64,000 nt of DNA, from the NCBI GenBank assembly GCA_020241865.1, contig GCA_020241865.1_4709.1. The stretch is one strand, 5' to 3'. Below, one piece after another: positions 4,808 to 60,082 of this stretch (position 1 is the stretch's first letter; the number at the start of each line of letters is the position of its first letter). Below the pieces are notes generated by a model that was given only the letters and a program-made list of their open reading frames with translations, was not told the DNA's origin and ran no database searches. A program made the translations under genes and the position numbers. Source of the DNA: a phage.

Positions 4808-4842
4808 CCTTCTCCCCAACCCGATGAGGGAAGGGGAGAAGG
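4808..4842. terminator. GC-rich stem-loop CCTTCTCCCC/GGGGAGAAGG (family member) between convergent genes
   Basis: Perfect 10-bp inverted repeat around CCC-GATGA-GGG inner hairpin; A11 tract 4783-4793 just upstream. Confidence 0.6.
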
Positions 4843-11062: not shown

Positions 11063-11211
11063 CGTCAACCTCCATCTGATTGAAAACTATCACGCATAAT
11101 ACATTTCCCTTTTCTTGTTCTTATCGAGCCGACAGCCGACGGTTTCAGCATCGTTCCTAGCGCGAGAACGACCTTACGTGTTGTCTATGCCTTATTCATC
11201 GCAGGCGTCTG

Positions 11212-11236
11212 TCACCTAGGTAATGTAAGCGTCAAA
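11212..11236 (-). promoter_or_regulatory. conserved promoter-like motif copy 3 (minus strand TACATTACCTAGGTGA)
   Basis: Shares CACCTAGGTAATGTA core with motifs at 19381-19416 and 57405-57437; lies in 330-bp intergenic region upstream of gene 9626-11062. Confidence 0.4.
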
Positions 11237-16063: not shown

Positions 16064-16112
16064 GCGGTTCCCTCCTCCAACCCGTAAGGGAAGGAGGAGG
16101 GGTTATGACCGC
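16064..16112. terminator. GC-rich stem-loop CCCTCCTCC-AA-CCC-GTAA-GGG-AA-GGAGGAGGG with extended flanking stem GCGGT/ACCGC, between convergent genes
   Basis: Perfect inverted repeat; A11 tract 16047-16057 gives a U-tract after the hairpin for minus-strand transcripts. Confidence 0.65.
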
Positions 16113-17567: not shown

Positions 17568-18470
17568 TTACTTAGTCTTCGAGTTACAAGGACTGACATG
17601 TTGTTGTACTCGTTGAATCGTATCGTAGTACGGGTTAGATTGGTTGAACATGCTGTTGTGTGGATGATAGCCGTATGGCGCATTTTGCCTTGTTGATGAG
17701 AAACCTTGTTGAGAAGGACGATTTGAATTAACCGCGAGTACGTAGTAAACCAAATTTTGACGGTCGAACGTTCCTTCGTTTTTGAAGGTGTCGGCGTAGG
17801 TGTTTATCGCTGGAGCGAGTCTATCACCATCGGCGGTAATAATTGTACCGTCTGGGTAAACTTCACGAACGACGCACCATGTTCCGATAAGAACGTCTTT
17901 GGGCGGCGTATTGCCGTATCCGGTTGTAACGGTAAGGTAAGTATCGAACCCTTCAGAACAACAAGGATGACGATAGATAGGTCCTGTCATTTCCGTTCTA
18001 TCGGTATCGTCGCATTTCTCTATCGAGAGCGATGGTGTGTCGGTTTTGAAATTGTCAAATTCTTTCTTTAAGTCGATTACAGGTTCTTTCGTATAGTACT
18101 TCTTGATTGCTTTGACGTAAAGATCAGGAACGGTTGTCAGCATTCCGTTATACCTGATTCTCAGGTTTTCGAGTAATCCAAAGATACTCGCGCATGCTTG
18201 TTCGCGAGGTTTTGTAAGATAAGAGATCCCCCCAGGAACGCTGGGATCTTTGAGAAAGAAGATTGCGTTATTGTCGTTGTGCAGTGCGTTGAAGAAAACG
18301 ATTGATTCGATATATACGGAGCATAGGCTGTCGTTGGCGTCGTCAGATAACACCCAGATGCACTCATCGGTCGTCTTGTTTAAAAGTTCTGTTTTGTCCA
18401 CCAAACGTTGTTTCATTGCGAGGAAATGTGCCTGTTGTTCAGCGGATAATTCACGATAAATAGTGGTCAT
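17568..18470 (-). CDS. hypothetical protein, tandem paralog of 18556-19329 (about 300 aa)
   Basis: Track ORF 17568-18548 trimmed to ATG 18470 (AAGGAG 6 nt upstream); shares IY-HP-C...YL-T-G and REVYPDG-I motifs with neighbour. Confidence 0.8.
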   Translation of the reverse strand: MTTIYRELSAEQQAHFLAMKQRLVDKTELLNKTTDECIWVLSDDANDSLCSVYIESIVFFNALHNDNNAIFFLKDPSVPGGISYLTKPREQACASIFGLLENLRIRYNGMLTTVPDLYVKAIKKYYTKEPVIDLKKEFDNFKTDTPSLSIEKCDDTDRTEMTGPIYRHPCCSEGFDTYLTVTTGYGNTPPKDVLIGTWCVVREVYPDGTIITADGDRLAPAINTYADTFKNEGTFDRQNLVYYVLAVNSNRPSQQGFSSTRQNAPYGYHPHNSMFNQSNPYYDTIQRVQQHVSPCNSKTK

Positions 18471-18517
18471 GTTGAGCTCCTTGATTACGATAAGGATGAT
18501 TGCGGTTTTGTGATGCT

Positions 18518-18546
18518 GGTAGGGCCCTAAACAAAGGAGCCCTACC
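18518..18546 (-). terminator. stem-loop GGTAGGGC/GCCCTACC between tandem paralogs
   Basis: 8-bp inverted repeat with 13-nt loop in the spacer between stop 18556 and start 18470. Confidence 0.5.
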
Positions 18547-18555
18547 AATATTGGG

Positions 18556-19380: not shown

Positions 19381-19416
19381 GTTATCACCTAGGTAATATA
19401 GTCGCGAAATAAACTG
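19381..19416 (-). promoter_or_regulatory. conserved promoter-like motif copy 1 (minus strand CAGTTTATTTCGCGACTATATTACCTAGGTGATAAC)
   Basis: Near-identical 33-nt copy at 57405-57437; contains TATATTAC; about 50 nt upstream of ATG 19329 and just downstream of stem-loop 19434-19465; adjacent inverted repeat TGATAACA-N8-TGTTATCA at 19364-19387. Confidence 0.5.
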
Positions 19417-19433
19417 GGTTAGACAGTATATGA

Positions 19434-19465
19434 CCCTCTCCCAACCCGTAAGGGAAGGGAGAGGG
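19434..19465 (-). terminator. GC-rich stem-loop CCCTCTCCC-AA-CCC-GTAA-GGG-AA-GGGAGAGGG (family member)
   Basis: Perfect inverted repeat starting 5 nt after stop of gene 19470-20837. Confidence 0.65.
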
Positions 19466-33371: not shown

Positions 33372-33403
33372 CCCTCTCCCAACCCGTAAGGGAAGGGAGA
33401 GGG
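33372..33403 (-). terminator. GC-rich stem-loop CCCTCTCCC-AA-CCC-GTAA-GGG-AA-GGGAGAGGG (family member)
   Basis: Perfect inverted repeat between stop 33426 and start 33323. Confidence 0.65.
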
Positions 33404-41646: not shown

Positions 41647-41678
41647 CCCTCCTCCAACCCGTCAGGGAAGGAGGAGGG
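41647..41678. terminator. GC-rich stem-loop CCCTCCTCC-AA-CCC-GTCA-GGG-AA-GGAGGAGGG between convergent genes
   Basis: Perfect inverted repeat between stop 41625 (plus) and stop 41688 (minus). Confidence 0.65.
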
Positions 41679-50137: not shown

Positions 50138-51889
50138 ATGAGCGAACAAGAACGAAAACCTAAGAAGAAACTGCTCGGTATTCAATGTCGACACATCAGC
50201 TATAACGAAGCGAACGATGGCAGCAAGAACGACCTCATGATCGCAAAAGAGATCATGTTCTTCGATGATAATACGCAAGCGACGAACCTTCGCTTCTTCG
50301 AGAATTACAAACGTCCGTTTTGGGTGACGGTAGAGAGTAAACGTAAGAACAAATATAAAAAGGAAAGCGAGAAGCTCTCGCATGTGCGTCGCTACGATGT
50401 CCGCCAAAGCGAACTGGTTGAAAAGATCAGCTCGGTACTTTATAAAAGACGTGCTGACGATAACACCCGTTTACAGCAGCTTGCACGGAGTCCATACCTC
50501 TATGGAACGGACGTTAGCGCCAGCTGTTATTTAAAAACCCAGTACAACACAAAATGGCCGGAATACGTCGATAAATTACCCGCTTCCATTGCCTGTTTCG
50601 ATATCGAAACCGACGTTGTCCACGGACACGGTAAGATCGTTTGTATGTCTATTACAATGGGATACAATGCGATACTTTGCTATACCAAGGACTTCGTTGG
50701 TCATATTCCGAATGCCATTGAGAAAACCCATGAGAAGATTCGATATTACCTGGCCGAACGTCTGAATACCAAAGAAGATCCCCACGCATTCGAAAAATAT
50801 CAGTACGATGTTCGAATCGTAGAAAGCCCGGCACAAGCGGTCATCCAATGCATGCAGAAGGTTCACGAATGGCAGCCGGATTATCTCCTTGGCTGGAATA
50901 TCGCGTTCGATATTCCGCGCATGCTCCAGGCACTGAACGAGGAAGGGTATCGTCCCGAGGATGTTTTCTCCGATCCCCGTATACCACCTAAATATCGTAT
51001 TGCTCGCTGGGTACCACCGAAGACCGACAAGGTATCTGCTTCAGGTCGTAAAACCAACCTTACCCTTGAGCAAACCTGGCCGATGTTTTATACGATGGCT
51101 ACGTATCAGGTTATGGATGCGATGTGTGGCTATAAGTTCGTTCGTTTAGGAAGACCGGATGAAGGACGCTATTCACTCGATGCGGTGTTAGAGCGAAATA
51201 AATGCCATACGAAATTAAAAGCTATTCCTGGTACAGAGGGGTTCACGGAGCTTGCCTGGCACGAAGAGATGCAAACGAACCATCAAATCGACTACGGCGT
51301 ATATAACCTTTGGGATAACCAGGGTATTGAGGCGTTGGACCAGAAAACAAAAGACTATTCGATGACCATCCCTATCCGTTTAGCGGCGTCGGATTTGAAA
51401 GATTTCAGTTCTAACCCTAAACGTATCTGCGATAAACTTTTCTTCGTTTATCTTAACCGTGGGGAAGTCATGGGATGTACCGCTGACGACATGACCCAGG
51501 AAGAAGATAAGTGGGTTATCTCACGAGCTGGACATATCGTCACATTACCATGCGATCTCATGGCTGACAACGGCATTCATCTCTTCTGGGATATGCCGAA
51601 CCTGAGAAGTTATATCCGTCTATTCGTTGCAGACCTTGACATTAGCAGTTCATACCCGAATGGGCAGATCCTGTTGAATCTATCCAGAGCGTGTGTTTTT
51701 CGCGAGCTCTCACGCATTGAGGGCGTCTCTGACTATCAATTCAGGAAGTTAGGTATCAACTTTATTACCGGAGGTAAAACGAACGCTGTAGACTTCTGTA
51801 GAATCGTTTATAAAGCACCATCGATGTTTGAACTTTTAGAACATTTCGATGCAACGCGTCCAAAAGAGGAAGCGCGGACCATCGAATGA
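50138..51889 (+). CDS. family-B DNA polymerase N-terminal fragment (3'-5' exonuclease domain plus motif A), 583 aa
   Basis: Motifs by eye in canonical order: Exo I CFDIETD (about residue 155), Exo II WNIAFDIP (about 258), Exo III Y-x3-D (YQVMD about 323 or YSLDAV about 345), motif-A-like DLDISSSYPNG (about 499); no motif B (K-x3-NS-x-YG) or motif C (YGDTDS) before stop. Confidence 0.8.
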   Translation: MSEQERKPKKKLLGIQCRHISYNEANDGSKNDLMIAKEIMFFDDNTQATNLRFFENYKRPFWVTVESKRKNKYKKESEKLSHVRRYDVRQSELVEKISSVLYKRRADDNTRLQQLARSPYLYGTDVSASCYLKTQYNTKWPEYVDKLPASIACFDIETDVVHGHGKIVCMSITMGYNAILCYTKDFVGHIPNAIEKTHEKIRYYLAERLNTKEDPHAFEKYQYDVRIVESPAQAVIQCMQKVHEWQPDYLLGWNIAFDIPRMLQALNEEGYRPEDVFSDPRIPPKYRIARWVPPKTDKVSASGRKTNLTLEQTWPMFYTMATYQVMDAMCGYKFVRLGRPDEGRYSLDAVLERNKCHTKLKAIPGTEGFTELAWHEEMQTNHQIDYGVYNLWDNQGIEALDQKTKDYSMTIPIRLAASDLKDFSSNPKRICDKLFFVYLNRGEVMGCTADDMTQEEDKWVISRAGHIVTLPCDLMADNGIHLFWDMPNLRSYIRLFVADLDISSSYPNGQILLNLSRACVFRELSRIEGVSDYQFRKLGINFITGGKTNAVDFCRIVYKAPSMFELLEHFDATRPKEEARTIE

Positions 51890-51936
51890 TTCAAGTAGGT
51901 TGATCCTCGCTTAACAAAAAAGAAAACACATGCGAA

Positions 51937-51969
51937 GCCCCTCCCCCTGGCGGAAGCCGGAGGGAGGGG
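51937..51969. terminator. GC-rich stem-loop CCCCTCCC...GGGAGGGG between convergent genes
   Basis: Imperfect inverted repeat between stop 51889 (plus) and stop 51976 (minus). Confidence 0.55.
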
Positions 51970-51975
51970 TGAGGT

Positions 51976-52461
51976 TTATGCGCGTTCGTTACCAACCGTT
52001 ACTTTGTAGTCAGCGTCGGTTAAGAAAATAGACAGGAATCCATGTTCTTTGCAAATCTTACTAAGGATGTCAGCAATGATTTCGTTGATCATCGGCTTGT
52101 TTGCAAGGGCATAGATGTACCCGGGTGTAAAAGAAAGTGCGTGATTGATCATAGGCTCATGAGAAGCCAAGATAAGGATCACGTGATGCTTCCCATCGTC
52201 GGTAACGACCGCTTGCGTAGACACGAAGAAATCAGTGAAGCAGCAGCGATCACAGGCTTTAGGTATATACAAGTCACCCAGAGCTTCGTCACGTGCTTTT
52301 ACGTGTGTTTCAGGGGTGATGCTGCTAAGTTGATCTTCAGCGAGATCCAAGACATCCTCAATCGTTTTAAGAATAGCGTTGCGGAAATCCTCACGGTAGA
52401 ATGGGATGATATCACGATCGTTCATGTAATCGCCGGATTCGATAGTAAAGTTGATGTTCAT
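51976..52461 (-). CDS. small hypothetical protein (161 aa), small-gene island
   Basis: ORF track; ATG 52461 with AGGAG upstream. Confidence 0.75.
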   Translation of the reverse strand: MNINFTIESGDYMNDRDIIPFYREDFRNAILKTIEDVLDLAEDQLSSITPETHVKARDEALGDLYIPKACDRCCFTDFFVSTQAVVTDDGKHHVILILASHEPMINHALSFTPGYIYALANKPMINEIIADILSKICKEHGFLSIFLTDADYKVTVGNERA

Positions 52462-52531
52462 TGAATGCTCCTAGTGGTTATGTCGATTGATCGATGTATT
52501 GATTTATGTTTGAAGGTGTTGTTCACCTTCG

Positions 52532-52996
52532 TTAGATATCGTCATCCGTGGTGCCGTAGGACATATGCTGAATTAATTTTCTCGGCTCGATGAAAATACG
52601 ACATGTGATAAACACATCGGGATCGTATTGCTCCACGCAACGTCCGAAGGTTTGTTTTGCGGCTTGGCGCATCGATGTTATTTCCTGATCGTTCATCGCA
52701 TTATCGAATTCGATGTTGATCGCGATTTTATCGGGAAATAAATAGATAAAGTAATCGCCGCTGATACCACCATCATCAAAGTGACGTTCATTGTAGCACT
52801 GGACGAGCTTACCTTCACGTTCTTTCTGATACCACCCAAGGATACTATTAAGACCTCTGTCCACGCATTCGAATGCTTGAGTAATAACATCCTCAACGAC
52901 GGATGCAGGCGTGGGACCATTGAATAGACGATCTAAGCGCTTTTTCATCGATTTGGTTTTCTCGTTCATGATTTCTTTTCCTGTTATAATCGGCAT
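52532..52996 (-). CDS. small hypothetical protein (154 aa), small-gene island
   Basis: ORF track; ATG 52996 lies 4 nt after the 3' arm of stem-loop 53001-53030, which supplies the only SD-like sequence (GGGGAAGGG). Confidence 0.75.
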   Translation of the reverse strand: MPIITGKEIMNEKTKSMKKRLDRLFNGPTPASVVEDVITQAFECVDRGLNSILGWYQKEREGKLVQCYNERHFDDGGISGDYFIYLFPDKIAINIEFDNAMNDQEITSMRQAAKQTFGRCVEQYDPDVFITCRIFIEPRKLIQHMSYGTTDDDI

Positions 52997-53000
52997 ACAA

Positions 53001-53030
53001 CCCTTCCCCGGCCTGATGGCTAGGGAAGGG
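53001..53030 (-). terminator. GC-rich stem-loop CCCTTCCC...GGGAAGGG (family relative) overlapping the ribosome-binding site of gene 52532-52996
   Basis: Inverted repeat between stop 53045 and start 52996. Confidence 0.55.
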
Positions 53031-53044
53031 GCTATGCTACGTTG

Positions 53045-53443
53045 TTATGCTTCGCAATCAGCTGAAGGCGTCGCGCCTTTCTTACCAGCGATACGCCAAA
53101 TCCGACACGCTGGGTAATGGTTAACCTCTAGAGAGCAAGGAATGTTATATTTCTCTTCCAGCGCATAAAGACATTTCGTTAGCTGCTCCAGCGCGTTCTC
53201 GTCGTGTCGTAACGCGTGGTGGCCTAATCGATGTTGGTCGTTCTTTATATACGCCTCGAAGAGAACATGTTGGCGATGTACGCTGACGTTTACAGCCTCG
53301 AGTATAGCTTGGTCGAGCATACGACTAAAGCACATCAACGAGTCAGATACGTTTTCTCGCTTAACCAGATCGATCATGGCGGGAATATACGAATGGTCGA
53401 TGTTATCGATGACCGCTTTAGCGACGGAATCAGCAACGTTCAT
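53045..53443 (-). CDS. small hypothetical protein (132 aa), tandem paralog of 53481-53876
   Basis: ORF track; shared motifs KAVxDNIDH, MIDxxK, EEKYNIP-SLEVN. Confidence 0.8.
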   Translation of the reverse strand: MNVADSVAKAVIDNIDHSYIPAMIDLVKRENVSDSLMCFSRMLDQAILEAVNVSVHRQHVLFEAYIKNDQHRLGHHALRHDENALEQLTKCLYALEEKYNIPCSLEVNHYPACRIWRIAGKKGATPSADCEA

Positions 53444-53480
53444 CTTTTTTAATCCCTAGTTTGTTATTGATCACGTATAT

Positions 53481-53876
53481 TTACTCTTTGACGTCAGTTG
53501 TCGTTTCGACATGCTTCTCACTACTGACGTACCAGAGCAGGTACGCTGGGAAAAGATTGACCTCTAAGCTAAATGGGATATTGTATTTCTCTTCCATTTT
53601 ACAGAGATGTTCTTTAAGTAAATTTCTCGCGTCTCTGTCACCACGAACAGAGTGCCAGTCTAGTTCTTTGTTCTCCTTTACCAGGACCTCTACGATGATA
53701 CGTTGCTCGTGAACCTCGGTTTTCACAGTGAAAAGTAAATCGCTGCTATCCAAACGGGTAAAACGAATGTATGAACCAGGTGTTTTTTCTTGTTTAATAA
53801 TATCGATCATGGTAGAAATGCGCGGATGATCGATGTTGTCGTTAACAGCTTTAACGATGGATTCTACAATGCTCAT
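53481..53876 (-). CDS. small hypothetical protein (131 aa), tandem paralog of 53045-53443
   Basis: ORF track; ATG 53876 with AAGGA upstream. Confidence 0.8.
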   Translation of the reverse strand: MSIVESIVKAVNDNIDHPRISTMIDIIKQEKTPGSYIRFTRLDSSDLLFTVKTEVHEQRIIVEVLVKENKELDWHSVRGDRDARNLLKEHLCKMEEKYNIPFSLEVNLFPAYLLWYVSSEKHVETTTDVKE

Positions 53877-53908
53877 TTTTTATCCTTAATGTTATCGATT
53901 TGGAAATA

Positions 53909-54676
53909 TTACTTATTTTTGCTTTCTTTATAGACAGTTGTTACCCACGATGGGAAAGCCGGATGGAAACAGAGCGTGAACGTAACTGTCGTATCGTATT
54001 TAAACGCACAGTTCACTAACCGGGTATCTAACGTTTTCCTTAATCCGTCATCATCGTTATCGATGATGGTCATATCTCTTAATATCCCAAGCACGTTAAC
54101 GCCATCGGGTGTCTGGGTTACGACAAGTCGTCGTAATGGCCCGCATGTATAGTCACGTACAAATCCTTTCTTCGGGTCCGATACCCTGTTTAACGCATCG
54201 TGATTTTTGATGAATTCATCGGCGATACAATAGGTTTGCTCCCTTGCTTTATCGGGATCGTATTCTGCTAATAGTTCCTTCGTGTCGAATGTTATCGCGT
54301 TATTAGCATTCGATTCAGAAGGGAAACATAAAACTAAACGAACAGGGTATTCATATTGATCTGTTCTCGTTTCGAAAGCATTAGCTAAACACGGCTTGTA
54401 TGCCTTTGCGTCGACATTGTCCAAACACGGATGCAATAATGCGTGAATAACGGCACCATCGTCAGTTAAACCGAATTCCAGAAATTGTGTTTCATCGACA
54501 TCCGTGACGGTTTTCTGAAGATACGCTTTACCGTTAACGATATCGGTATCCCACATATCGTCGTTTAACGATTCTTCAAACTTATCGAATATATGGTTTA
54601 CGAAATTGATGAGTTCATCAATACGACACTGTTGGTTGAATTCGATTAATCGTTGAACTTTATCTCTGATAGACAT
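53909..54676 (-). CDS. hypothetical protein (255 aa), small-gene island
   Basis: ORF track; ATG 54676 with AAGGAG upstream. Confidence 0.8.
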   Translation of the reverse strand: MSIRDKVQRLIEFNQQCRIDELINFVNHIFDKFEESLNDDMWDTDIVNGKAYLQKTVTDVDETQFLEFGLTDDGAVIHALLHPCLDNVDAKAYKPCLANAFETRTDQYEYPVRLVLCFPSESNANNAITFDTKELLAEYDPDKAREQTYCIADEFIKNHDALNRVSDPKKGFVRDYTCGPLRRLVVTQTPDGVNVLGILRDMTIIDNDDDGLRKTLDTRLVNCAFKYDTTVTFTLCFHPAFPSWVTTVYKESKNK

Positions 54677-54678
54677 GA

Positions 54679-55143
54679 TTACTCCTTAGTTCCTTCTTCG
54701 TTGGACGTATATTCCACATAGTGGAATTCACGGCCGTCGATAAACTTGAGTGCTACTGTAATAGGGAAATCACACGGCATAGCGGATTTCGTAAATGCGT
54801 TATCAGCAACATCAGATAACCGACGTATGGTATTCTCCCCTTTTGCTATGAATGGGAATTTAATGTTAATAAGGATACGGTGTTTGTAAATAGTAAAGAC
54901 GACAGTGCTGTCGAAATGTACCCCAGTTAAAGTCATTGTTGGGATACGTTTTACAACGGAGAAATGTGTCCCGTCAATATCGCTACTTCCCACTGACCAT
55001 TCATCGGAATTGCGTAGACTTTTCTTGAGGATATCAACGCTTTGCGTGACCACCTCAGCAACTTGTACGACGTACGTGTCTTTATGCATGTCGAAAAGTT
55101 CGTTGACGTTAGATTTGAATGAATAAACCGTTGCCATTATCAT
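54679..55143 (-). CDS. small hypothetical protein (154 aa), small-gene island
   Basis: ORF track; ATG 55143 overlaps upstream stop (ATGA); alternative ATG 55137 has better SD spacing. Confidence 0.75.
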   Translation of the reverse strand: MIMATVYSFKSNVNELFDMHKDTYVVQVAEVVTQSVDILKKSLRNSDEWSVGSSDIDGTHFSVVKRIPTMTLTGVHFDSTVVFTIYKHRILINIKFPFIAKGENTIRRLSDVADNAFTKSAMPCDFPITVALKFIDGREFHYVEYTSNEEGTKE

Positions 55144-55598
55144 ACCTCTTTTTTCATCTTCATCGGAACAGCGAGTGCTGCACTCGCTGTTCCATTATCC
55201 GGCTCATATTCCAATGTAACGAGATTGCAGCCGTCCGATAATTCATAATCGATCGCTAGGGGGAACGAGATACCGTGCGACTTTATGCATTTACCAAATG
55301 TCTCGTTGGCTGTATACATTAGAAGTTGCTTTGCGGCAAGCCCGTTTACGCTGAAAGGTAATTGTGCTGTCGCAGCGATACGATTATTGTAAACTCTGAT
55401 ATCGGTGATATCTACAATCGTAGCATTGCCGTGTTGTGTTGATGGAACGGATAGGTTGTAGAAGTAAGGTTCGGAGTCGGAATCGGGCTCGTTAAATAAT
55501 TCCCAGCACCCGTCCTCCTGCAATCTTACTTCGAGTATTTCAAAGCTTTTAATTATCGATTCTACCAGCTGCTCACCGTAAGAATCCCATGTCGTCAT
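55140..55598 (-). CDS. small hypothetical protein (152 aa), small-gene island
   Basis: ORF track; ATG 55598. Confidence 0.75.
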   Translation of the reverse strand: MTTWDSYGEQLVESIIKSFEILEVRLQEDGCWELFNEPDSDSEPYFYNLSVPSTQHGNATIVDITDIRVYNNRIAATAQLPFSVNGLAAKQLLMYTANETFGKCIKSHGISFPLAIDYELSDGCNLVTLEYEPDNGTASAALAVPMKMKKEV

Positions 55599-55669
55599 TT
55601 TTTAACACCTTCGACACCTTTTAACCGATACGTGTCCCATCTAACAAGGGACACGATATCGTTGATTAA

Positions 55670-56164
55670 TTACTCTTCTGTGTTTTCATTGTCAGGATCG
55701 TAGTGGAATTCGAACAGCCCTGAACCGTCGTGTCCGTTGATTGTTAGTATAACGGGCATATCGAATCCTCGGACACGCGAATGAAAACATTGTGCTAATT
55801 TTAGTTTGGCGTATGCCGCTACTTCATTGACAGCAATACACGATTCACCTGTTATACTCAGTATAACGTCGATACTAACAATGTTGTCGTGCAACGCAAA
55901 ACGCCAGCGATCGATACGATTATTATCTTTATCGGTTGTCTCGTTTACGAGATAGACTTTATCGTCAACCGACAAAGCGGGACTCCAGCAACGATCGTTT
56001 ATTAAATTCGCCTGGAGTTTTAGTATCGTCTGATCGATAATATCCCAACACGTAACCAGCGTGGTGTCAGGCACTGAGTAGAGAAGGGCGTGCACTTTAT
56101 CCTTTATTTTAAGTGCTTCCGCAGGACGTCCGCAAATACCATGCATTTCGACTTTCTTATTCAT
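55670..56164 (-). CDS. small hypothetical protein (about 164 aa), small-gene island
   Basis: Track start 56170 is GTG; ATG at 56164. Confidence 0.7.
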   Translation of the reverse strand: MNKKVEMHGICGRPAEALKIKDKVHALLYSVPDTTLVTCWDIIDQTILKLQANLINDRCWSPALSVDDKVYLVNETTDKDNNRIDRWRFALHDNIVSIDVILSITGESCIAVNEVAAYAKLKLAQCFHSRVRGFDMPVILTINGHDGSGLFEFHYDPDNENTEE

Positions 56165-56208
56165 ATTCACTTCTTTCTTAATCTAAATGTTAGTTGGGGG
56201 TGGGATGC

Positions 56209-56811
56209 TTACATGCTTTCTAGCATATTGACGATCATGGAACCCATACCGAAACTCGGTCTCTCACCGATATACTCAGCAAGCTGGCGATGGACGTCTT
56301 TTGGATTTCCTTCTTCACCGTCAGCATCGATGTAGACTGAAAAAGAAACCGAATCGGAATCCACGCTGATAACCAGACGACGTTCATTGCGTTCCTTGAG
56401 CGTGTCGACGATAGATGCTTTCAGTACCGGGATCGCATTCATCGCGTGCAAGATATCTCCATCGGGTTTCGGCAGATCGATCTTTTCTTTCAGGTCGATA
56501 TTGATGTTGGTTACAATTGGGTTGAGGTCGACCTTGACGTAATCGTTAGGGTACATGCGAATAATCGCACGATCGATATCTGAACCGTAAAAGTCAACAC
56601 GTGGCTTTAACACTTCTTTGTTTGGATCCATGTTTTCATCCATACCCGCCTGCAAGAAACGTTCTACGTTATCCAGTTCACGATAAACTAACGCTTCGAT
56701 TTCTTTCAGATAGTTGGCTGCGGTTTCATGTTCTTTACGCAGCTCGTCTTTAAGGAGCTGTACGGTGGTTTCACTGGAACGAATGCTGTTCGCGAATTGG
56801 GTAATTGACAT
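56209..56811 (-). CDS. hypothetical protein (about 200 aa), small-gene island
   Basis: Track start 56841 is TTG; ATG 56811 has AAGGA 8 nt upstream. Confidence 0.75.
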   Translation of the reverse strand: MSITQFANSIRSSETTVQLLKDELRKEHETAANYLKEIEALVYRELDNVERFLQAGMDENMDPNKEVLKPRVDFYGSDIDRAIIRMYPNDYVKVDLNPIVTNINIDLKEKIDLPKPDGDILHAMNAIPVLKASIVDTLKERNERRLVISVDSDSVSFSVYIDADGEEGNPKDVHRQLAEYIGERPSFGMGSMIVNMLESM

Positions 56812-56858
56812 ATCGAATTCCTTAAATTCTCTTGAGTTCAATTAATGATGAAAAGCTG

Positions 56859-56887
56859 TAAAAAAAAAAGGTGGGGCGAACCCCACC
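56859..56887 (-). terminator. intrinsic terminator: stem GGTGGGG-CGAA-CCCCACC followed by T10 on minus strand
   Basis: Perfect 7-bp stem with 4-nt loop and A10 tract on plus strand (U-tract on minus transcript), 26 nt after stop of gene 56913-57338. Confidence 0.75.
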
Positions 56888-56912
56888 AAAACGTCAGACA
56901 CACGCGGGAAAA

Positions 56913-57338
56913 TTAATTCAGTGATGCATATAAGGCATAACGACTGTAGATCTCAACCGCCGGTCCGTTATGCGTTAACAGACCGTCTCGGCTGTAATAC
57001 TGGAAAAATGAATAACGTTTGTCGAAGTGATAAACAAAAGCAATGTCTTTGCCGTCAAAACCTGTGATGCGTGGTCTGTTTTTATCTAGCAATGCTTTGA
57101 CTTTTAACAGTGTTGCCGCACGTGCTTTAACGTTAGGGATCAAGCCATCACAATCGATATAAACAGTGTAACCTGTTTCAGATGTTGCGACGGTCGTATT
57201 GCGATTGACGCGGAAGATTTTTGTTTCGTATGTACTATCTTCAAGAATTGGGTTTTGTTTTTCGTATTTTCGTTTACGCAGAAATTCTACAACGGTGATA
57301 TAGTTAGCGGTAATATGCCCGGTTATAGCTTGTAACAT
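56913..57338 (-). CDS. small hypothetical protein (141 aa) downstream of promoter-like motif copy 2
   Basis: ORF track; ATG 57338 with AAAGGA upstream. Confidence 0.8.
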   Translation of the reverse strand: MLQAITGHITANYITVVEFLRKRKYEKQNPILEDSTYETKIFRVNRNTTVATSETGYTVYIDCDGLIPNVKARAATLLKVKALLDKNRPRITGFDGKDIAFVYHFDKRYSFFQYYSRDGLLTHNGPAVEIYSRYALYASLN

Positions 57339-57404
57339 CTTGACATCCTTTTATATTGGATTGGTTGCAATTGTCTTAAATAGATGATAAGATATTTTGC
57401 TCTT

Positions 57405-57437
57405 ATCACTAAGGTAATGTAGTCGCGAAATAAACTG
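57405..57437 (-). promoter_or_regulatory. conserved promoter-like motif copy 2 (minus strand CAGTTTATTTCGCGACTACATTACCTTAGTGAT)
   Basis: Near-identical to 19381-19416; adjacent inverted repeat TGATAAGA-N8-TCTTATCA at 57385-57408; about 67 nt upstream of ATG 57338. Confidence 0.5.
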
Positions 57438-57467
57438 CGTTAACACGAAATAAAAAACAGCATAGAA

Positions 57468-57507
57468 CCCTCCTCCCACATCCTTCAAGAGGACGGTGGG
57501 AAGAGGG
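57468..57507 (-). terminator. GC-rich stem-loop CCCTCCTCCC...GGGAAGAGGG (family member, enlarged loop)
   Basis: Inverted repeat with one mismatch, 6 nt after stop of gene 57513-57914. Confidence 0.55.
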
Positions 57508-57512
57508 AGAGA

Positions 57513-57914
57513 TTAAATGTCGTGGACGGCAATGCCGTTTAACCAGCAATACAGCTTAACGCGACAGGAATACCGCTTCGTTGCGGCAACCATTTCATCG
57601 CGTAAACGCTGGTATATTTCATCCTGGTGTTCACGATCAATGGGGTAATCAGCCCAACATTCGATCATGACGTCACCATTCGTCAGAATCGTCGTACGCA
57701 TCCTGTCCTGGATACGGCGGTCTTTCCCGGCATTAGGGAAATACATTCCTTCAGTACGAATAAGGTCGCCGCAAGGCATGACTAACCATTCGTTCGTTTT
57801 GCCGGTATTCTTATAATCCATTACAGCTTGCATTGCGGTGTCAACGCTAAAAGAAACATAATTCCAAACGGATGTCCAACGATAGATTGCGGGTTGTTCG
57901 AGTGTTTCGTTCAT
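57513..57914 (-). CDS. small hypothetical protein (133 aa)
   Basis: ORF track; ATG 57914 with AGGAAAAG upstream. Confidence 0.8.
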   Translation of the reverse strand: MNETLEQPAIYRWTSVWNYVSFSVDTAMQAVMDYKNTGKTNEWLVMPCGDLIRTEGMYFPNAGKDRRIQDRMRTTILTNGDVMIECWADYPIDREHQDEIYQRLRDEMVAATKRYSCRVKLYCWLNGIAVHDI

Positions 57915-57968
57915 GGAGTGCTTTTCCTATTTTTATTTTCTGCACAGGATAAATTCAACGGCATAAAG

Positions 57969-58000
57969 CCCTTCCCTGCCCTTATATGGGGCGGGAAGAG
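57969..58000 (-). terminator. GC-rich stem-loop CCCTTCCC...GGGAAGAG (family relative) with CATAAA/TTTATG flanks
   Basis: Imperfect inverted repeat in 214-bp spacer between stop 58129 and start 57914. Confidence 0.5.
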
Positions 58001-58128
58001 TTTATGACCGCAATGAGAATCTCTCACGACAAGCTCACGACGATTATCGCATCACCCCGCGAGTGAGGGAGATCAGGATCACCTCCTACGTCGTAACGAC
58101 AGTAATCCCGTTAACGTCGCCTTAGGCA

Positions 58129-58755
58129 TTATGCGAAGCGACGCATGTAACCTGCCAGATAGTTACGTGTATCGAAGTAAGCAATTTCAGGAATTGCGAT
58201 ATTAAGGTCGATAGCACGGATTTCAACCTGGCGACGGCTTTCATCATAGATCGCATCCATCAGACGCAGTACTGTCAGGAAAGCCATGCGGGTATGGTAG
58301 TCCAGCGGCATGTTATCGATGCCACGATACAGATAACGGTTTGCATTAAATGCTCCTTCGCTGTTATCTTTCCAGATCTTCAGAATATCAGCAAAGGCGG
58401 TGCGGAAAACCTCAGGATTATCCACATCCAGTAACGCACGGAAGGCAGACATTAAAGACCGCTGATGGCGGATCAACGACTGCGGTGTTTGCGGCATGGT
58501 CGGACCCATTTCTTCCGCATATTTCTGGAACGGGGCAACCAGGGTTGCGGCACGAGAAGCCACGATAGAAACAGCAGGCGATTCTTTCACCGCTGGTTTC
58601 GCAGGCTTTTCTTCAACAACGGTTTCCTTCTTCTCAACAGCGACCGTTTCCGGCTGTGCTACAACATCACCAACCGGAGCATCTGCAACGGTGGTTTCTA
58701 CCGCAGTAATCTCCTCGTCCATTTTTGCAGAACGTTGGTCTTTATTCTTGCTCAT
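58129..58755 (-). CDS. highly expressed small protein (208 aa) with charged, proline/valine-rich N-terminal segment
   Basis: ORF track; ATG 58755 with AAAGGA upstream; host-like codon choice and two stop-free antisense frames. Confidence 0.85.
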   Translation of the reverse strand: MSKNKDQRSAKMDEEITAVETTVADAPVGDVVAQPETVAVEKKETVVEEKPAKPAVKESPAVSIVASRAATLVAPFQKYAEEMGPTMPQTPQSLIRHQRSLMSAFRALLDVDNPEVFRTAFADILKIWKDNSEGAFNANRYLYRGIDNMPLDYHTRMAFLTVLRLMDAIYDESRRQVEIRAIDLNIAIPEIAYFDTRNYLAGYMRRFA

Positions 58756-58780: not shown

Positions 58781-60082
58781 TTAACTAATATAAAGTTCGG
58801 GATCGTAAGGCGCTAACGATACACTGGCGTTATGCATTGCTTTCATCATAGTGTTCATGAAAACGTTGTTTACACCGGTGATCTCTGCCCCGATCGCGTC
58901 TGGGGTTGGAGCCATCGCGTTACCGCAACAGGTAGCACAGTATTCCAGTGGGCCTGCTTTACAACGTTGAGGATCACGTAACTTGATGGTCTGTCCTTCC
59001 AAGGAAGCAAGTAATTCAGCATCAATAAGTTTAAGCGCTGCGCCGTCGATCATGTAACGGCCGACAAGCAGCTTATCTTTGATATGATCGCGGTTTACCG
59101 TGAACAGAATATGTTCGTGGGTACCACAGTCGTCCATCGTGATTTTAAGGTTCTGTGTCGCACGTTGTGATTCTTTCGCCGTCTGTCCCGCTAAAGCGGT
59201 CAGTGCGCCACGTGAGAACGAACCTGCACGTGCGCTGTTGTTGTACTCCGCCCAATGGTCGACACGCATCCCTTCAGCCAGGCTGTGTGTGATAACGTTA
59301 CGTTTACCAGGGTCAACGAAGTCGGCTTCAACCCCCATCATGATGTGCGTTTTCTTTCGAGTATTACCGAAACTCTTACCGGGGTTAATATAGAACCCTT
59401 CCGATTCATCACCCTTAAAGGATTCCTTATCCATTTTGGTCAGCGTGGCTTCGAGTTTGATCAGTTCTTCAGGCGTGAACTTACCTTCCTCTTGTAAGCG
59501 TGCTAACTCTTTATCGCGATAGGCAATAATATCATCATCGACCGTTAACGCTTTATCACTCATTGATGGAACAATTAAACGGTTGATAGCGGTTAACGCA
59601 CTAATATTGTTGGTGAATTTCTTCACTTCGCTTGCGTACAACGGACCAATTGGACGTTCGTTAGGATCGGGTATTCCCTCTTCAGGATCGTCAGCGACGC
59701 GTGGCGCAATCAGTGACTCCAGTGTACCGCTGGTCAACCGTCCTGCCTGGTATTCAATCTGAATACCGAAAGCATCATAAAGGACGTACATATTGAACAA
59801 CGCTTCACCGAAGGTTGTGGTGGTTGTATTCTTAACCGACGGTAGATCACCAGGTGCAAGCTCCAATGGCTCCCAGAAACTCAACAGGGGTTTTGTTGGC
59901 TCGGTTTCCCATTGGTGTTCTTCACCGTCGATGGTAACCGTAACGACGTTACCTTGACGACGTAATTTAGGCTGATACTTCTCAGCGCCGCCTTCCGTAA
60001 AAGCAAATGCGTCGTTAATCCATTCAAGATAACGGTAGTGCCCTTCACGCATCGCGTAAAGGAAATATTCACGAGGTGTCAT
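58781..60082 (-). CDS. hypothetical protein (433 aa)
   Basis: ORF track; ATG 60082 with AAGGAG upstream. Confidence 0.85.
   Translation of the reverse strand: MTPREYFLYAMREGHYRYLEWINDAFAFTEGGAEKYQPKLRRQGNVVTVTIDGEEHQWETEPTKPLLSFWEPLELAPGDLPSVKNTTTTTFGEALFNMYVLYDAFGIQIEYQAGRLTSGTLESLIAPRVADDPEEGIPDPNERPIGPLYASEVKKFTNNISALTAINRLIVPSMSDKALTVDDDIIAYRDKELARLQEEGKFTPEELIKLEATLTKMDKESFKGDESEGFYINPGKSFGNTRKKTHIMMGVEADFVDPGKRNVITHSLAEGMRVDHWAEYNNSARAGSFSRGALTALAGQTAKESQRATQNLKITMDDCGTHEHILFTVNRDHIKDKLLVGRYMIDGAALKLIDAELLASLEGQTIKLRDPQRCKAGPLEYCATCCGNAMAPTPDAIGAEITGVNNVFMNTMMKAMHNASVSLAPYDPELYIS

Follow-up and report, generated by a model that had tools for sequence, protein, structure and literature searches.

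We analysed a cluster of small genes at positions 51976-57914 of a 64,000-nucleotide (nt) stretch of phage DNA (contig GCA_020241865.1_4709.1; this whole stretch is called the window), which had been singled out in an original prediction as a candidate host-takeover or anti-defence island. The eleven consecutive minus-strand open reading frames (ORFs) of that prediction are all present, and we name them W1 (51976-52461) up to W11 (57513-57914). Nucleotide comparison with Escherichia phage vB_EcoM_Goslar (hereafter Goslar), the type member of the genus Goslarvirus, showed that Goslar is 91.6% identical over 64% of the region 51900-58100. On account of this similarity, together with orthologs at 67-100% identity, the window is, as judged from its sequence, that of a Goslarvirus, a nucleus-forming jumbo phage (Chimalliviridae) infecting Escherichia coli, Salmonella and Shigella.

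Read along the minus strand, W11 comes first and is the ortholog of Goslar gp76 (133 amino acids (aa), 98% identity); it gave no family match in Pfam and PHROGs, the two collections against which it was scanned. W10 (56913-57338; 141 aa, 99% identity to gp75) is basic, with an isoelectric point (pI) of 9.4, and W9 (56209-56811; 95.5% identity to gp74) is, like W10 and W1, a conserved singleton. These are followed by an array of seven genes, W8 to W2, from which W10 lies apart and whose products are all mildly to strongly acidic (pI 4.4-6.0). The array consists of W8 (55670-56170; 164-166 aa, of the gp73 type, 79% identity to gp73), W7 (55140-55598; 152 aa), whose stop overlaps the start of W6 (ATGA), W6 itself (54679-55143; 154 aa, of the gp72 type, 67% identity to gp72), the two-domain W5 (53909-54676; 255 aa), W4 (53481-53876; 131 aa), W3 (53045-53443; 132 aa) and W2 (52532-52996; 154 aa, of the gp71 type, 73% identity to gp71). 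The last gene, W1 (161 aa, pI 4.7), is identical to gp70 (100%). W3, W4, W5 and W7 have no counterpart in Goslar, and W7 is optional in relatives as well. For two genes the start codon chosen in relatives and in the Goslar gene calls, an ATG, is the better one: 56811 for W9 (200 aa), in place of the TTG at 56841, and 56164 for W8 (55670-56164, 164 aa). No recognisable motif had been noted from the letters, and W1-W10 stay below every curated threshold of Pfam, PHROGs, NCBIfam and PADLOC, where the matches were sub-threshold noise alone (Invasin_D4, Schlafen GTPase-like domain, SIR2 and LplB). A 140-aa ORF antisense to W1 (52042-52464, plus strand) was listed mechanically, has no gene support and is taken as spurious.

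The timing of expression was read from RNA sequencing (RNA-seq) of Goslar, whose genes carry HOV27_gp0NN names in the supplementary tables, at 30 min in a ChmA knockdown, which is arrested at the early vesicle with no phage nucleus, versus a control. The response is sharply bimodal (Sup. Table 2 of bioRxiv 10.1101/2023.09.20.558163). gp70-gp75 show log2 fold changes (log2FC) of +1.0 to +1.3 in the knockdown, which puts them with chimallin and the other nucleus-independent genes, with gp75 at +1.05 to +1.17, gp74 at +1.06 to +1.09 and gp70 at +1.0 to +1.2, while gp51-gp69 and gp76-gp93 fall to -3 to -7 (bioRxiv 10.1101/2023.09.20.558163). The W11 ortholog gp76, at -4.5 to -6.1, is nucleus-dependent, and the capsid decorator gp77 and the virion RNA polymerase (vRNAP) subunit gp78 belong to the same nucleus-dependent class (bioRxiv 10.1101/2023.09.20.558163). 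The knockdown transcriptome is reported to agree with the 5-min transcriptome for 164 of 171 genes (bioRxiv 10.1101/2023.09.20.558163). Early expression of the island, as originally predicted, therefore holds for the Goslar orthologs of W1, W2, W6, W8, W9 and W10 and fails for W11, which had been counted as part of the island and instead goes with the capsid-decorator and vRNAP genes. Because gp76-gp78 are nucleus-dependent and gp70-gp75 early, we delimit the unit as W10 to W1 without W11. W11 is a separate nucleus-dependent (middle/late) gene of the preceding unit, which probably ends at a hairpin at 57468-57507.

The boundary between the late class (gp76) and the early class (gp75) coincides exactly with the position of a sequence motif. 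At 57404-57435 on the minus strand, directly upstream of the first gene of the unit, W10, lies the early (virion RNA polymerase) promoter-like motif GTTTATTTCGCGACTACATTACCTTAGTGATA, a match to the chimallivirus consensus. The stretch reads TTTCGCGACTACATTACCTTAGTG, as compared with the predicted early promoters TTTRARR_BTATATTACDWHDGTG of 201phi2-1, ...TTTYARRYAKATATTATYWWADTG of OBP and TATATTAC of phiKZ (PMC7058600 Table 2). It has the TATATTAC-type core with TTT upstream and GTG downstream, and shares the TTT-N-TAYATTAC-N4-GTG architecture with the predicted early promoters of 201phi2-1, OBP, EL and phiKZ (PMC7058600 Table 2). The motif, which had been described only as promoter-like, is real in the sense that two more copies occur in the window (19383-19414 and ~11205-11230) where none is expected by chance. 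These are the only three copies in 64 kb, all on the minus strand, and each stands at the 5' edge of a block matching a Goslar early-class block (gp40-gp37, gp47-gp44 and gp75-gp70). In 17 related loci the motif lies about 92 nt (range 89-145 nt) upstream of the gp75/W10 ATG and is the only copy within 14-20 kb. In Goslar's own sequence it was found at the gp41|gp40 junction and upstream of gp75, and the same pattern was not found at the gp48|gp47 junction. Loose patterns revealed no further early promoter inside the island. The motif looks usable as a marker of early units across the genus. Directly downstream of the second copy lie two adjacent genes of ~326 aa (17568-18548 and 18556-~19340, minus strand), which are paralogs of each other (26% identity over ~280 aa, E 1e-17) and absent from Goslar, where only the 62-aa gp47 is found; with this pair, expanded paralogs and variable content are seen in a second early block.

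The stem-loops reported from the letters are also borne out, as seven intergenic hairpins fold better than shuffled sequence (z -3.0 to -5.2). Two of them frame the unit. The hairpin at 57468-57507 (minus strand; minimum free energy (MFE) -29.1 kcal/mol, z -4.95), just downstream of W11 and followed by a T-rich stretch, sits between the late-class gene and the early promoter and is probably the terminator of the upstream late unit. The second is a GC-rich hairpin at 51938-51969 (MFE -27.7 kcal/mol, z -3.05), placed where W1 and the DNA polymerase gene converge; it probably terminates transcription from both sides and forms the 3' end of the unit. Four more, on the minus strand, lie inside the unit, namely between W8 and W7 (55626-55661; MFE -20.8 kcal/mol, z -4.44), between W3 and W2 (52997-53035; MFE -23.6 kcal/mol, z -3.98), downstream of W2 (52512-52530, short; MFE -9.9 kcal/mol, z -4.64) and between W10 and W9, where the predicted intrinsic terminator was found again by a scan as a hairpin at 56870-56887 with a T10 run. 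The latter element, GGTGGGGTTCGCCCCACC plus T10 (56860-56887, z -3.04), is canonical in form, and a terminator after gp75 is annotated in Goslar too. The 3' arm of the hairpin at 52997-53035 stops one base before the W2 ATG and includes the Shine-Dalgarno-like GAAGGG, so that formation of the hairpin would hide the ribosome-binding site of W2 and could thereby control its translation.

The genes had been thought to be separately terminated. This did not hold, as there is a single early promoter and read density in Goslar does not fall across the canonical terminator, being ~0.9 reads per nt in gp75 and 1.05-1.3 over the genes gp74 to gp70. Because density is not lower downstream, the terminator after gp75 shows no visible sign of ending the early transcript; the element at 56860-56887 is either read through by the phage polymerase or followed by an unrecognised promoter. 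Since density is roughly uniform and the island contains no second early motif, we treat W10-W1 as one early unit.

Sequence and structure comparisons place the seven array genes in two families, which we call A (W2, W6, W7, W8 and the N-terminal domain of W5) and B (W3 and W4). W3 and W4 are tandem paralogs, as proposed, with 39% identity over 129 aa (E 1e-29) and the shared motifs KAVxDNIDH and EEKYNIPxSLEVN. An older family of five genes had also been suggested; hidden Markov models (HMMs) and jackhmmer confirm W2, W6, W7 and W8 as its members (the genes starting at 52532, 54679, 55140 and 55670) and add the N-terminal half of W5 (53909), and W1 (51976) drops out (hhalign P 0.15). BLAST links W6, W7, W8 and their Goslar orthologs at E 1e-3 to 1e-13, W7 matching gp72 at 29% identity (E 1.6e-13). 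An initial five-member HMM recruits W2 (E 2.8e-6) and W5 (E 2.4e-4), and jackhmmer iteration yields E 1e-20 to 1e-64, converging at 170 sequences. W2 then matches the family A HMM at E 3.8e-51, W8 matches at E 2e-56 and W7 at E 6.5e-33. In W5, residues 1-134 form a full family A domain (HMM E 1e-33), with a second weak match at 210-240, and residues 208-252 match the family B HMM through KY..F.PA..W (i-E 0.024). We conclude that W5 is a fusion of an A unit and a B unit.

The two families are themselves similar. Their hhalign alignment is collinear over 75 columns and weak (P 0.002), and the A and B HMMs cross-match weakly in both directions (E 0.006-0.1). AlphaFold2 was run on alignments of paralogs plus orthologs. 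The W6 model (predicted local distance difference test (pLDDT) 82, predicted template modelling score (pTM) 0.75) has the topology aa-bbbb-a-bb, with helices 9-18 and 21-43, four strands, helix 103-120 and two strands, and the W3 model (pLDDT 83, pTM 0.79) has the topology aa-bbb-a-bb with its third helix at 82-99. The single significant BFVD match of the W6 model is Goslar gp73, a family A protein (E 6e-10), and the single significant match of the W3 model is the same gp73 (E 1.1e-6, probability 1.0, TMq 0.55). Thus the fold comparison proposed for the island proteins gave one predicted alpha/beta fold common to W6 and W3 and not unrelated ones. We conclude that W2-W8 constitute, on the strength of these models, one superfamily of small acidic alpha/beta proteins, the predicted fold of which has no convincing match in the PDB or among viral proteins outside the genus. 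The invariant family A positions (L43, W49, A113 and Y145) are hydrophobic or aromatic, and they presumably form the scaffold, with most of the variation expected elsewhere. W1, W9, W10 and W11 showed no profile similarity to family A (hhalign P 0.05-0.57) or to W3/W4 of family B (P 0.26-0.6), and gave no significant profile-profile match among themselves, W9-W10 at P 0.01 being a hint. Membership of W1 in the family is therefore unsupported by sequence. A PD-(D/E)XK nuclease was considered and rejected, because the Foldseek matches to UL24/ORF20 and exonuclease VIII-like proteins were weak (TM 0.25-0.3, E >1e-3), no catalytic motif is present and the invariant residues are those hydrophobic and aromatic ones.

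We then asked how far the proteins extend beyond Goslarviruses. A HMMER scan of 1.84 billion representative proteins with family A gave 15 matches; the contigs that were read are Goslarvirus island loci or short contigs, several matches are short fragments, and two, which we regard as spurious, are long proteins of repetitive sequence in which the match is scattered over many short pieces. A word-indexed search of 5.8 billion proteins returned orthologs at 73-100% identity and nothing else. Family B gave 29 clusters, all on contigs that share enterobacterial sources and contig sizes with Goslarvirus genomes. Neither HMM matches elsewhere in the window. Searching 50,697 phage records with tblastn gave Goslar only or nothing for W3, W1, W9 and W10, the sole match of W10 being Goslar. 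Megablast of the island found no match in complete E. coli genomes or in plasmids, a scan of genome contigs with W9 found no relative, and sequence searches of the PDB were negative for family A, W1, W9 and W10. No sequence or fold similarity was found to known anti-defence proteins (Acr, the DNA mimics Ocr/ArdA, anti-CBASS, anti-Thoeris and others). By these searches the superfamily appears restricted to Goslarviruses, and within them to this one locus. Many contigs of 235-260 kb, from assemblies of E. coli, Salmonella and Shigella as well as from metagenomes, encode the island proteins in identical or nearly identical form. This agrees with the reported growth of Goslarvirus to 237 genomes, which were recovered from assemblies of the same three hosts (PMC12768965).

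We mapped the locus in ~18 Goslarvirus genomes. The conservation of W3 among them is overstated, because an exact match to W3 served to retrieve six of the loci. All share a constant frame of gp77, gp76, an optional 151-/163-aa gene, gp75, gp74, the array, usually gp70, and the DNA polymerase. The array has nine slots, all matched by the family HMMs: the gp73 type, the W7 type, the gp72/W6 type (with at least two divergent alleles), the W5 type (also in a truncated 143-aa form, in L010), the W4 type, the W3 type, the gp71/W2 type, a 166-169-aa type and a 142-167-aa type. The number of A/B genes per genome ranges from 3 (Goslar) to 9 (L006 and L020), with 7 in the window. The gp73, gp72 and gp71 slots are occupied almost always, and the W6 slot holds alleles that are either ~98-100% identical to W6 or 81-87% identical to gp72. 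W9, W10 and W1 are 92-100% conserved in most genomes. W1 is not an alternative cassette to a 169-aa plus 148-aa gene pair, a possibility we had considered, as L011 and L016 carry both. The optional 151-/163-aa gene stands between gp76 and the early promoter (L010 6449-6904, L018 8192-8647, and a 163-aa ORF in L012), on the late-class side of the junction, and matches no island family.

Pairwise ratios of nonsynonymous to synonymous substitution rates (dN/dS, omega) are 0.21-0.41 for the array genes (0.35 for W6), as against 0.09 for gp74/W9, 0.11 for gp75/W10, 0.17 for gp70 and 0.01-0.13 for gp66, gp77, gp78 and gp79. It is strongly supported that the array proteins evolve 2-4 times faster than their neighbours, under purifying but relaxed selection, and because omega is well below 1 the array genes are functional. 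Both the family data and the evolution of the array agree with the initial description of the genes as small, lineage-specific, partly paralogous and fast-diversifying.

The same pattern could be produced by dispensable genes, that is, neutral or decaying paralogs that hitch-hike as cassettes in a recombination hotspot and have no host-directed function. The presence/absence polymorphism of 3-9 copies, the truncated forms in relatives (the 143-aa W5 and ORFs of 117 and 54 aa), a constraint weaker than that of the neighbours and the lack of homologs outside one genus all fit such a reading. It is nevertheless improbable in our view, as dN/dS values of 0.2-0.4 indicate purifying selection, the ORFs are intact in many genomes (in the assembly collection, 572 indexed blocks contain the exact W3 protein), the folds are predicted with confidence, the gp73-, gp72- and gp71-type slots are nearly always filled, and the genes are transcribed and yield peptides.

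The peptides come from liquid chromatography-tandem mass spectrometry of purified Goslar virions, with estimated copies per virion (Table S4 of bioRxiv 10.64898/2026.04.21.720040). gp70 was found at ~166 copies (4 peptides, 37 spectra), gp74 at ~8, similar to vRNAP subunits, gp71 at 3.7 and gp76 at 2.6, and gp72, gp75 and gp73 at 0.54, 0.48 and 0.40 copies with one peptide each (bioRxiv 10.64898/2026.04.21.720040). The mass of gp70 in that table, 18,203.7 Da, equals the 18,204 Da computed for W1. We take gp72, gp75 and gp73 as background because they rest on single peptides at levels like those of non-virion RNA polymerase (nvRNAP) subunits and replication enzymes; the peptides do show that gp71, gp72 and gp73 are real proteins, and their background copy numbers speak against packaging. 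Chimallin (~126 copies) and PhuZ (~171 copies), both non-structural, are abundant in the same preparation, and the early-class gp158 and gp214 reach ~900 copies in virions (bioRxiv 10.64898/2026.04.21.720040). Because of these proteins, abundance by itself is not proof of packaging. Detection in virions, which had been named as an observation that would count against the island's proposed role, thus touches gp70 and gp74 and leaves family A aside (0.4-3.7 copies, background). On a fair view, the proteins of family A are not components of the virion, and an association with virions is possible for W1 and perhaps for W9.

These data bear most directly on a second alternative, that the products are packaged and injected virion proteins, a diversified internal set comparable to the T4 internal protein (IP) loci or to the PF12699 inner-body paralogs. 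Besides the copy numbers of gp70 (W1) and gp74 (W9), this would be consistent with the position of the island next to the capsid-decorator and vRNAP genes and with the abundance in virions of early-class gp158 and gp214. However, gp72, gp73, gp75 and gp71 resemble nvRNAP, ligase and RNase H in their copy numbers, the non-structural chimallin and PhuZ also reach 126-171 copies, the island proteins have no PF12699 domain, and the island transcripts are early, whereas the known packaged gp53-58 are nucleus-dependent. We consider this alternative unlikely.

Taken together, the best explanation of the whole, which we hold with modest confidence, is that the stretch 51976-57435 is one early transcription unit carrying a lineage-specific array of W2-W8 paralogs. 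Infection would proceed at this locus as follows. The virion RNA polymerase, injected with the DNA, would start at the early promoter at 57404-57435, and transcription would run through W10, W9, the seven-gene array W8-W2 and W1, to end at the hairpin that the unit has in common with the convergent DNA polymerase gene. As transcription needs no phage nucleus, the proteins would be made in the host cytoplasm from the vesicle stage onwards, while the early infection vesicle still encloses the phage DNA. There is strong support for growth of the array by tandem duplication and gene fusion, and for turnover from one related phage to another, in which genes are gained or lost and alleles replaced. 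The paralogs may be modules that bind proteins, built on a hydrophobic scaffold that is conserved and surfaces that vary, and each could engage a different host factor, either a defence or a host-range determinant, in the exposed early phase.

A host-range or anti-defence role is the one we favour for the array proteins, because the pattern is that expected of protein-binding modules with variable host targets, and we put it forward tentatively, as a candidate role. A more specific form of it, in which the array is an accordion-like repertoire of early cytoplasmic effectors, each neutralising or decoying a distinct protein- or RNA-sensing defence or host-range barrier, is conceivable and in our judgment rather doubtful. 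Alternatively, the proteins could serve the phage's own early programme, for instance vesicle or nucleus assembly, mRNA handling or import licensing. Co-expression with the early class, including the chimallin and nvRNAP genes, and the 92-100% conservation of W9, W10 and W1 in most genomes are in line with this. But the island genes are missing from the other chimalliviruses in the collection of 50,697 phage records, and for that reason are not part of the chimallivirus core set, and their copy number and alleles differ between close relatives that have the same core machinery; we therefore give this alternative a low probability.

Several points weigh against our explanation of an early unit with a host-directed array. 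The expression data are from Goslar at 30 min in a knockdown and not per-gene 5-min data from the window phage, and for W3, W4, W5 and W7, which lack a Goslar ortholog, the timing follows from their position inside the unit. A canonical terminator lies within the proposed unit; read-through is deduced from read counts, and a second, unrecognised promoter is possible. Homology between A and B is based on structure predictions and on profile scores that are weak. Virion preparations contain many copies of the W1 ortholog, so that at least one product may act after packaging and not as newly made protein in the cytoplasm. The array proteins do not resemble any known anti-defence protein, and gene-wide positive selection was not seen (omega <1).

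The genes flanking the island agree with the assignment of the window to Goslarvirus. On the W11 side are the capsid decorator gp77 (58129-58755; solved structure PDB 11fg, E 1e-126) and the RNA polymerase beta-like subunit gp78 (58781-60082, 433 aa; phrog_2962, E 6e-106), which is among the five vRNAP subunits listed for Goslar (bioRxiv 10.64898/2026.04.21.720040). On the W1 side is the DNA polymerase (50138-51889, plus strand; phrog_3011), whose allele in the window runs through all 583 aa uninterrupted. The gene of Goslar and of most relatives is split after codon 499 by an insertion of ~1.76 kb (L001 3974-5732), on which lie the gene for the HNH/NUMOD1 endonuclease gp69 and the core of a group I intron (Rfam RF00028; 44.7 bits, E 1.5e-9, slightly below the gathering score). 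As exon 2 was found beyond the insertion (L001 5733-5987, residues 499-583, 98.8% identity), the Goslar gp68 annotation (499 aa) covers exon 1 only.

A hairpin family (e.g., CTCTCCCTTCCCTTACGGGTTGGGAGAG) recurs throughout the window where genes end (4809-4841, 16072-16099, 19436-19463, 33374-33401 and 41649-41676, minus strand), in many cases with GGTT(C)TATGC after it, and related stems, C/T-rich and then G/A-rich, are found at 51938-51969, 52997-53035, 57468-57507 and 57960-58009. TATG is the phiKZ nvRNAP promoter motif. The recurrent hairpin may be a putative terminator of the phage's own, or a terminator-promoter module.

Nucleus-forming jumbo phages evade DNA-targeting immunity, and the question is how they handle early protein- and RNA-sensing defences. 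If the accordion-like reading is true, only such defences or host-range barriers can reach a phage shielded by vesicle and nucleus, the turnover of copies and alleles would record an arms race with E. coli, Salmonella and Shigella, and E. coli chimalliviruses would have in the array their first defined anti-defence gene family, one with a previously unseen fold. The locus offers a bounded set of candidates, with one early promoter and a genus-specific paralog family of 3-9 copies, and in this sense the array is a good list for experiments rather than a surprise. Paralog content can be correlated with host defence repertoire because the phage genomes are assembled together with host genomes, and for Goslar working knockdown and microscopy tools exist. 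As a marker of early blocks, the promoter motif helps to annotate the rest of the genome. Should the proteins prove dispensable, the locus would still be a clear example of the birth, fusion and turnover of a phage gene family.

The closest parallels are the early operons of phiKZ-like phages (phiKZ, 201phi2-1, OBP, EL and N1M2), which have the same promoter architecture, TTT-N-TA(T/C)ATTAC-N4-GTG, and likewise consist of small lineage-specific ORFans with nucleus-independent transcription. Their gene content, however, is unrelated, no homolog of the ten proteins being present in any other phage record, and the Goslarvirus unit differs in having an amplified paralog family. Within the same lineage, the PF12699 operon (phiKZ gp92-97, Goslar gp53-58) is also a tandem array of structurally related paralogs, but its proteins are large, nucleus-dependent (log2FC -3.7 to -5.2) and packaged at 50-2150 copies, whereas the island proteins have 130-255 aa, belong to the early class and do not contain PF12699. 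The hyperplastic early regions and IP loci of T4-like phages hold small strain-variable genes between conserved modules and are thought to adapt the phage to its hosts and their defences. They share gain, loss and allele replacement with the Goslarvirus array. T4 IPs are packaged via an N-terminal capsid-targeting sequence and then injected, in contrast to family A, which is at background level in virions and in which no shared targeting peptide was identified. Anti-CRISPR and anti-restriction islands and the poxvirus-type multigene families ("genomic accordions") similarly combine small acidic proteins, clustered genes, variable copy number, relaxed constraint and early expression, but the array differs from anti-defence islands in having no similarity to known inhibitors and no associated Aca-like helix-turn-helix regulator. 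Overall, strain-variable early ORFan clusters with a phage-specific early promoter are a familiar feature of phiKZ-like phages and of T4-type hyperplastic regions. The new elements are the exact limits of the unit, with W11 excluded, the A-B fusion in W5, the polymorphism of 3-9 copies, and the recognition of the seven genes as one likely superfamily whose predicted fold is unmatched outside the genus, both in the PDB and among viral structures.

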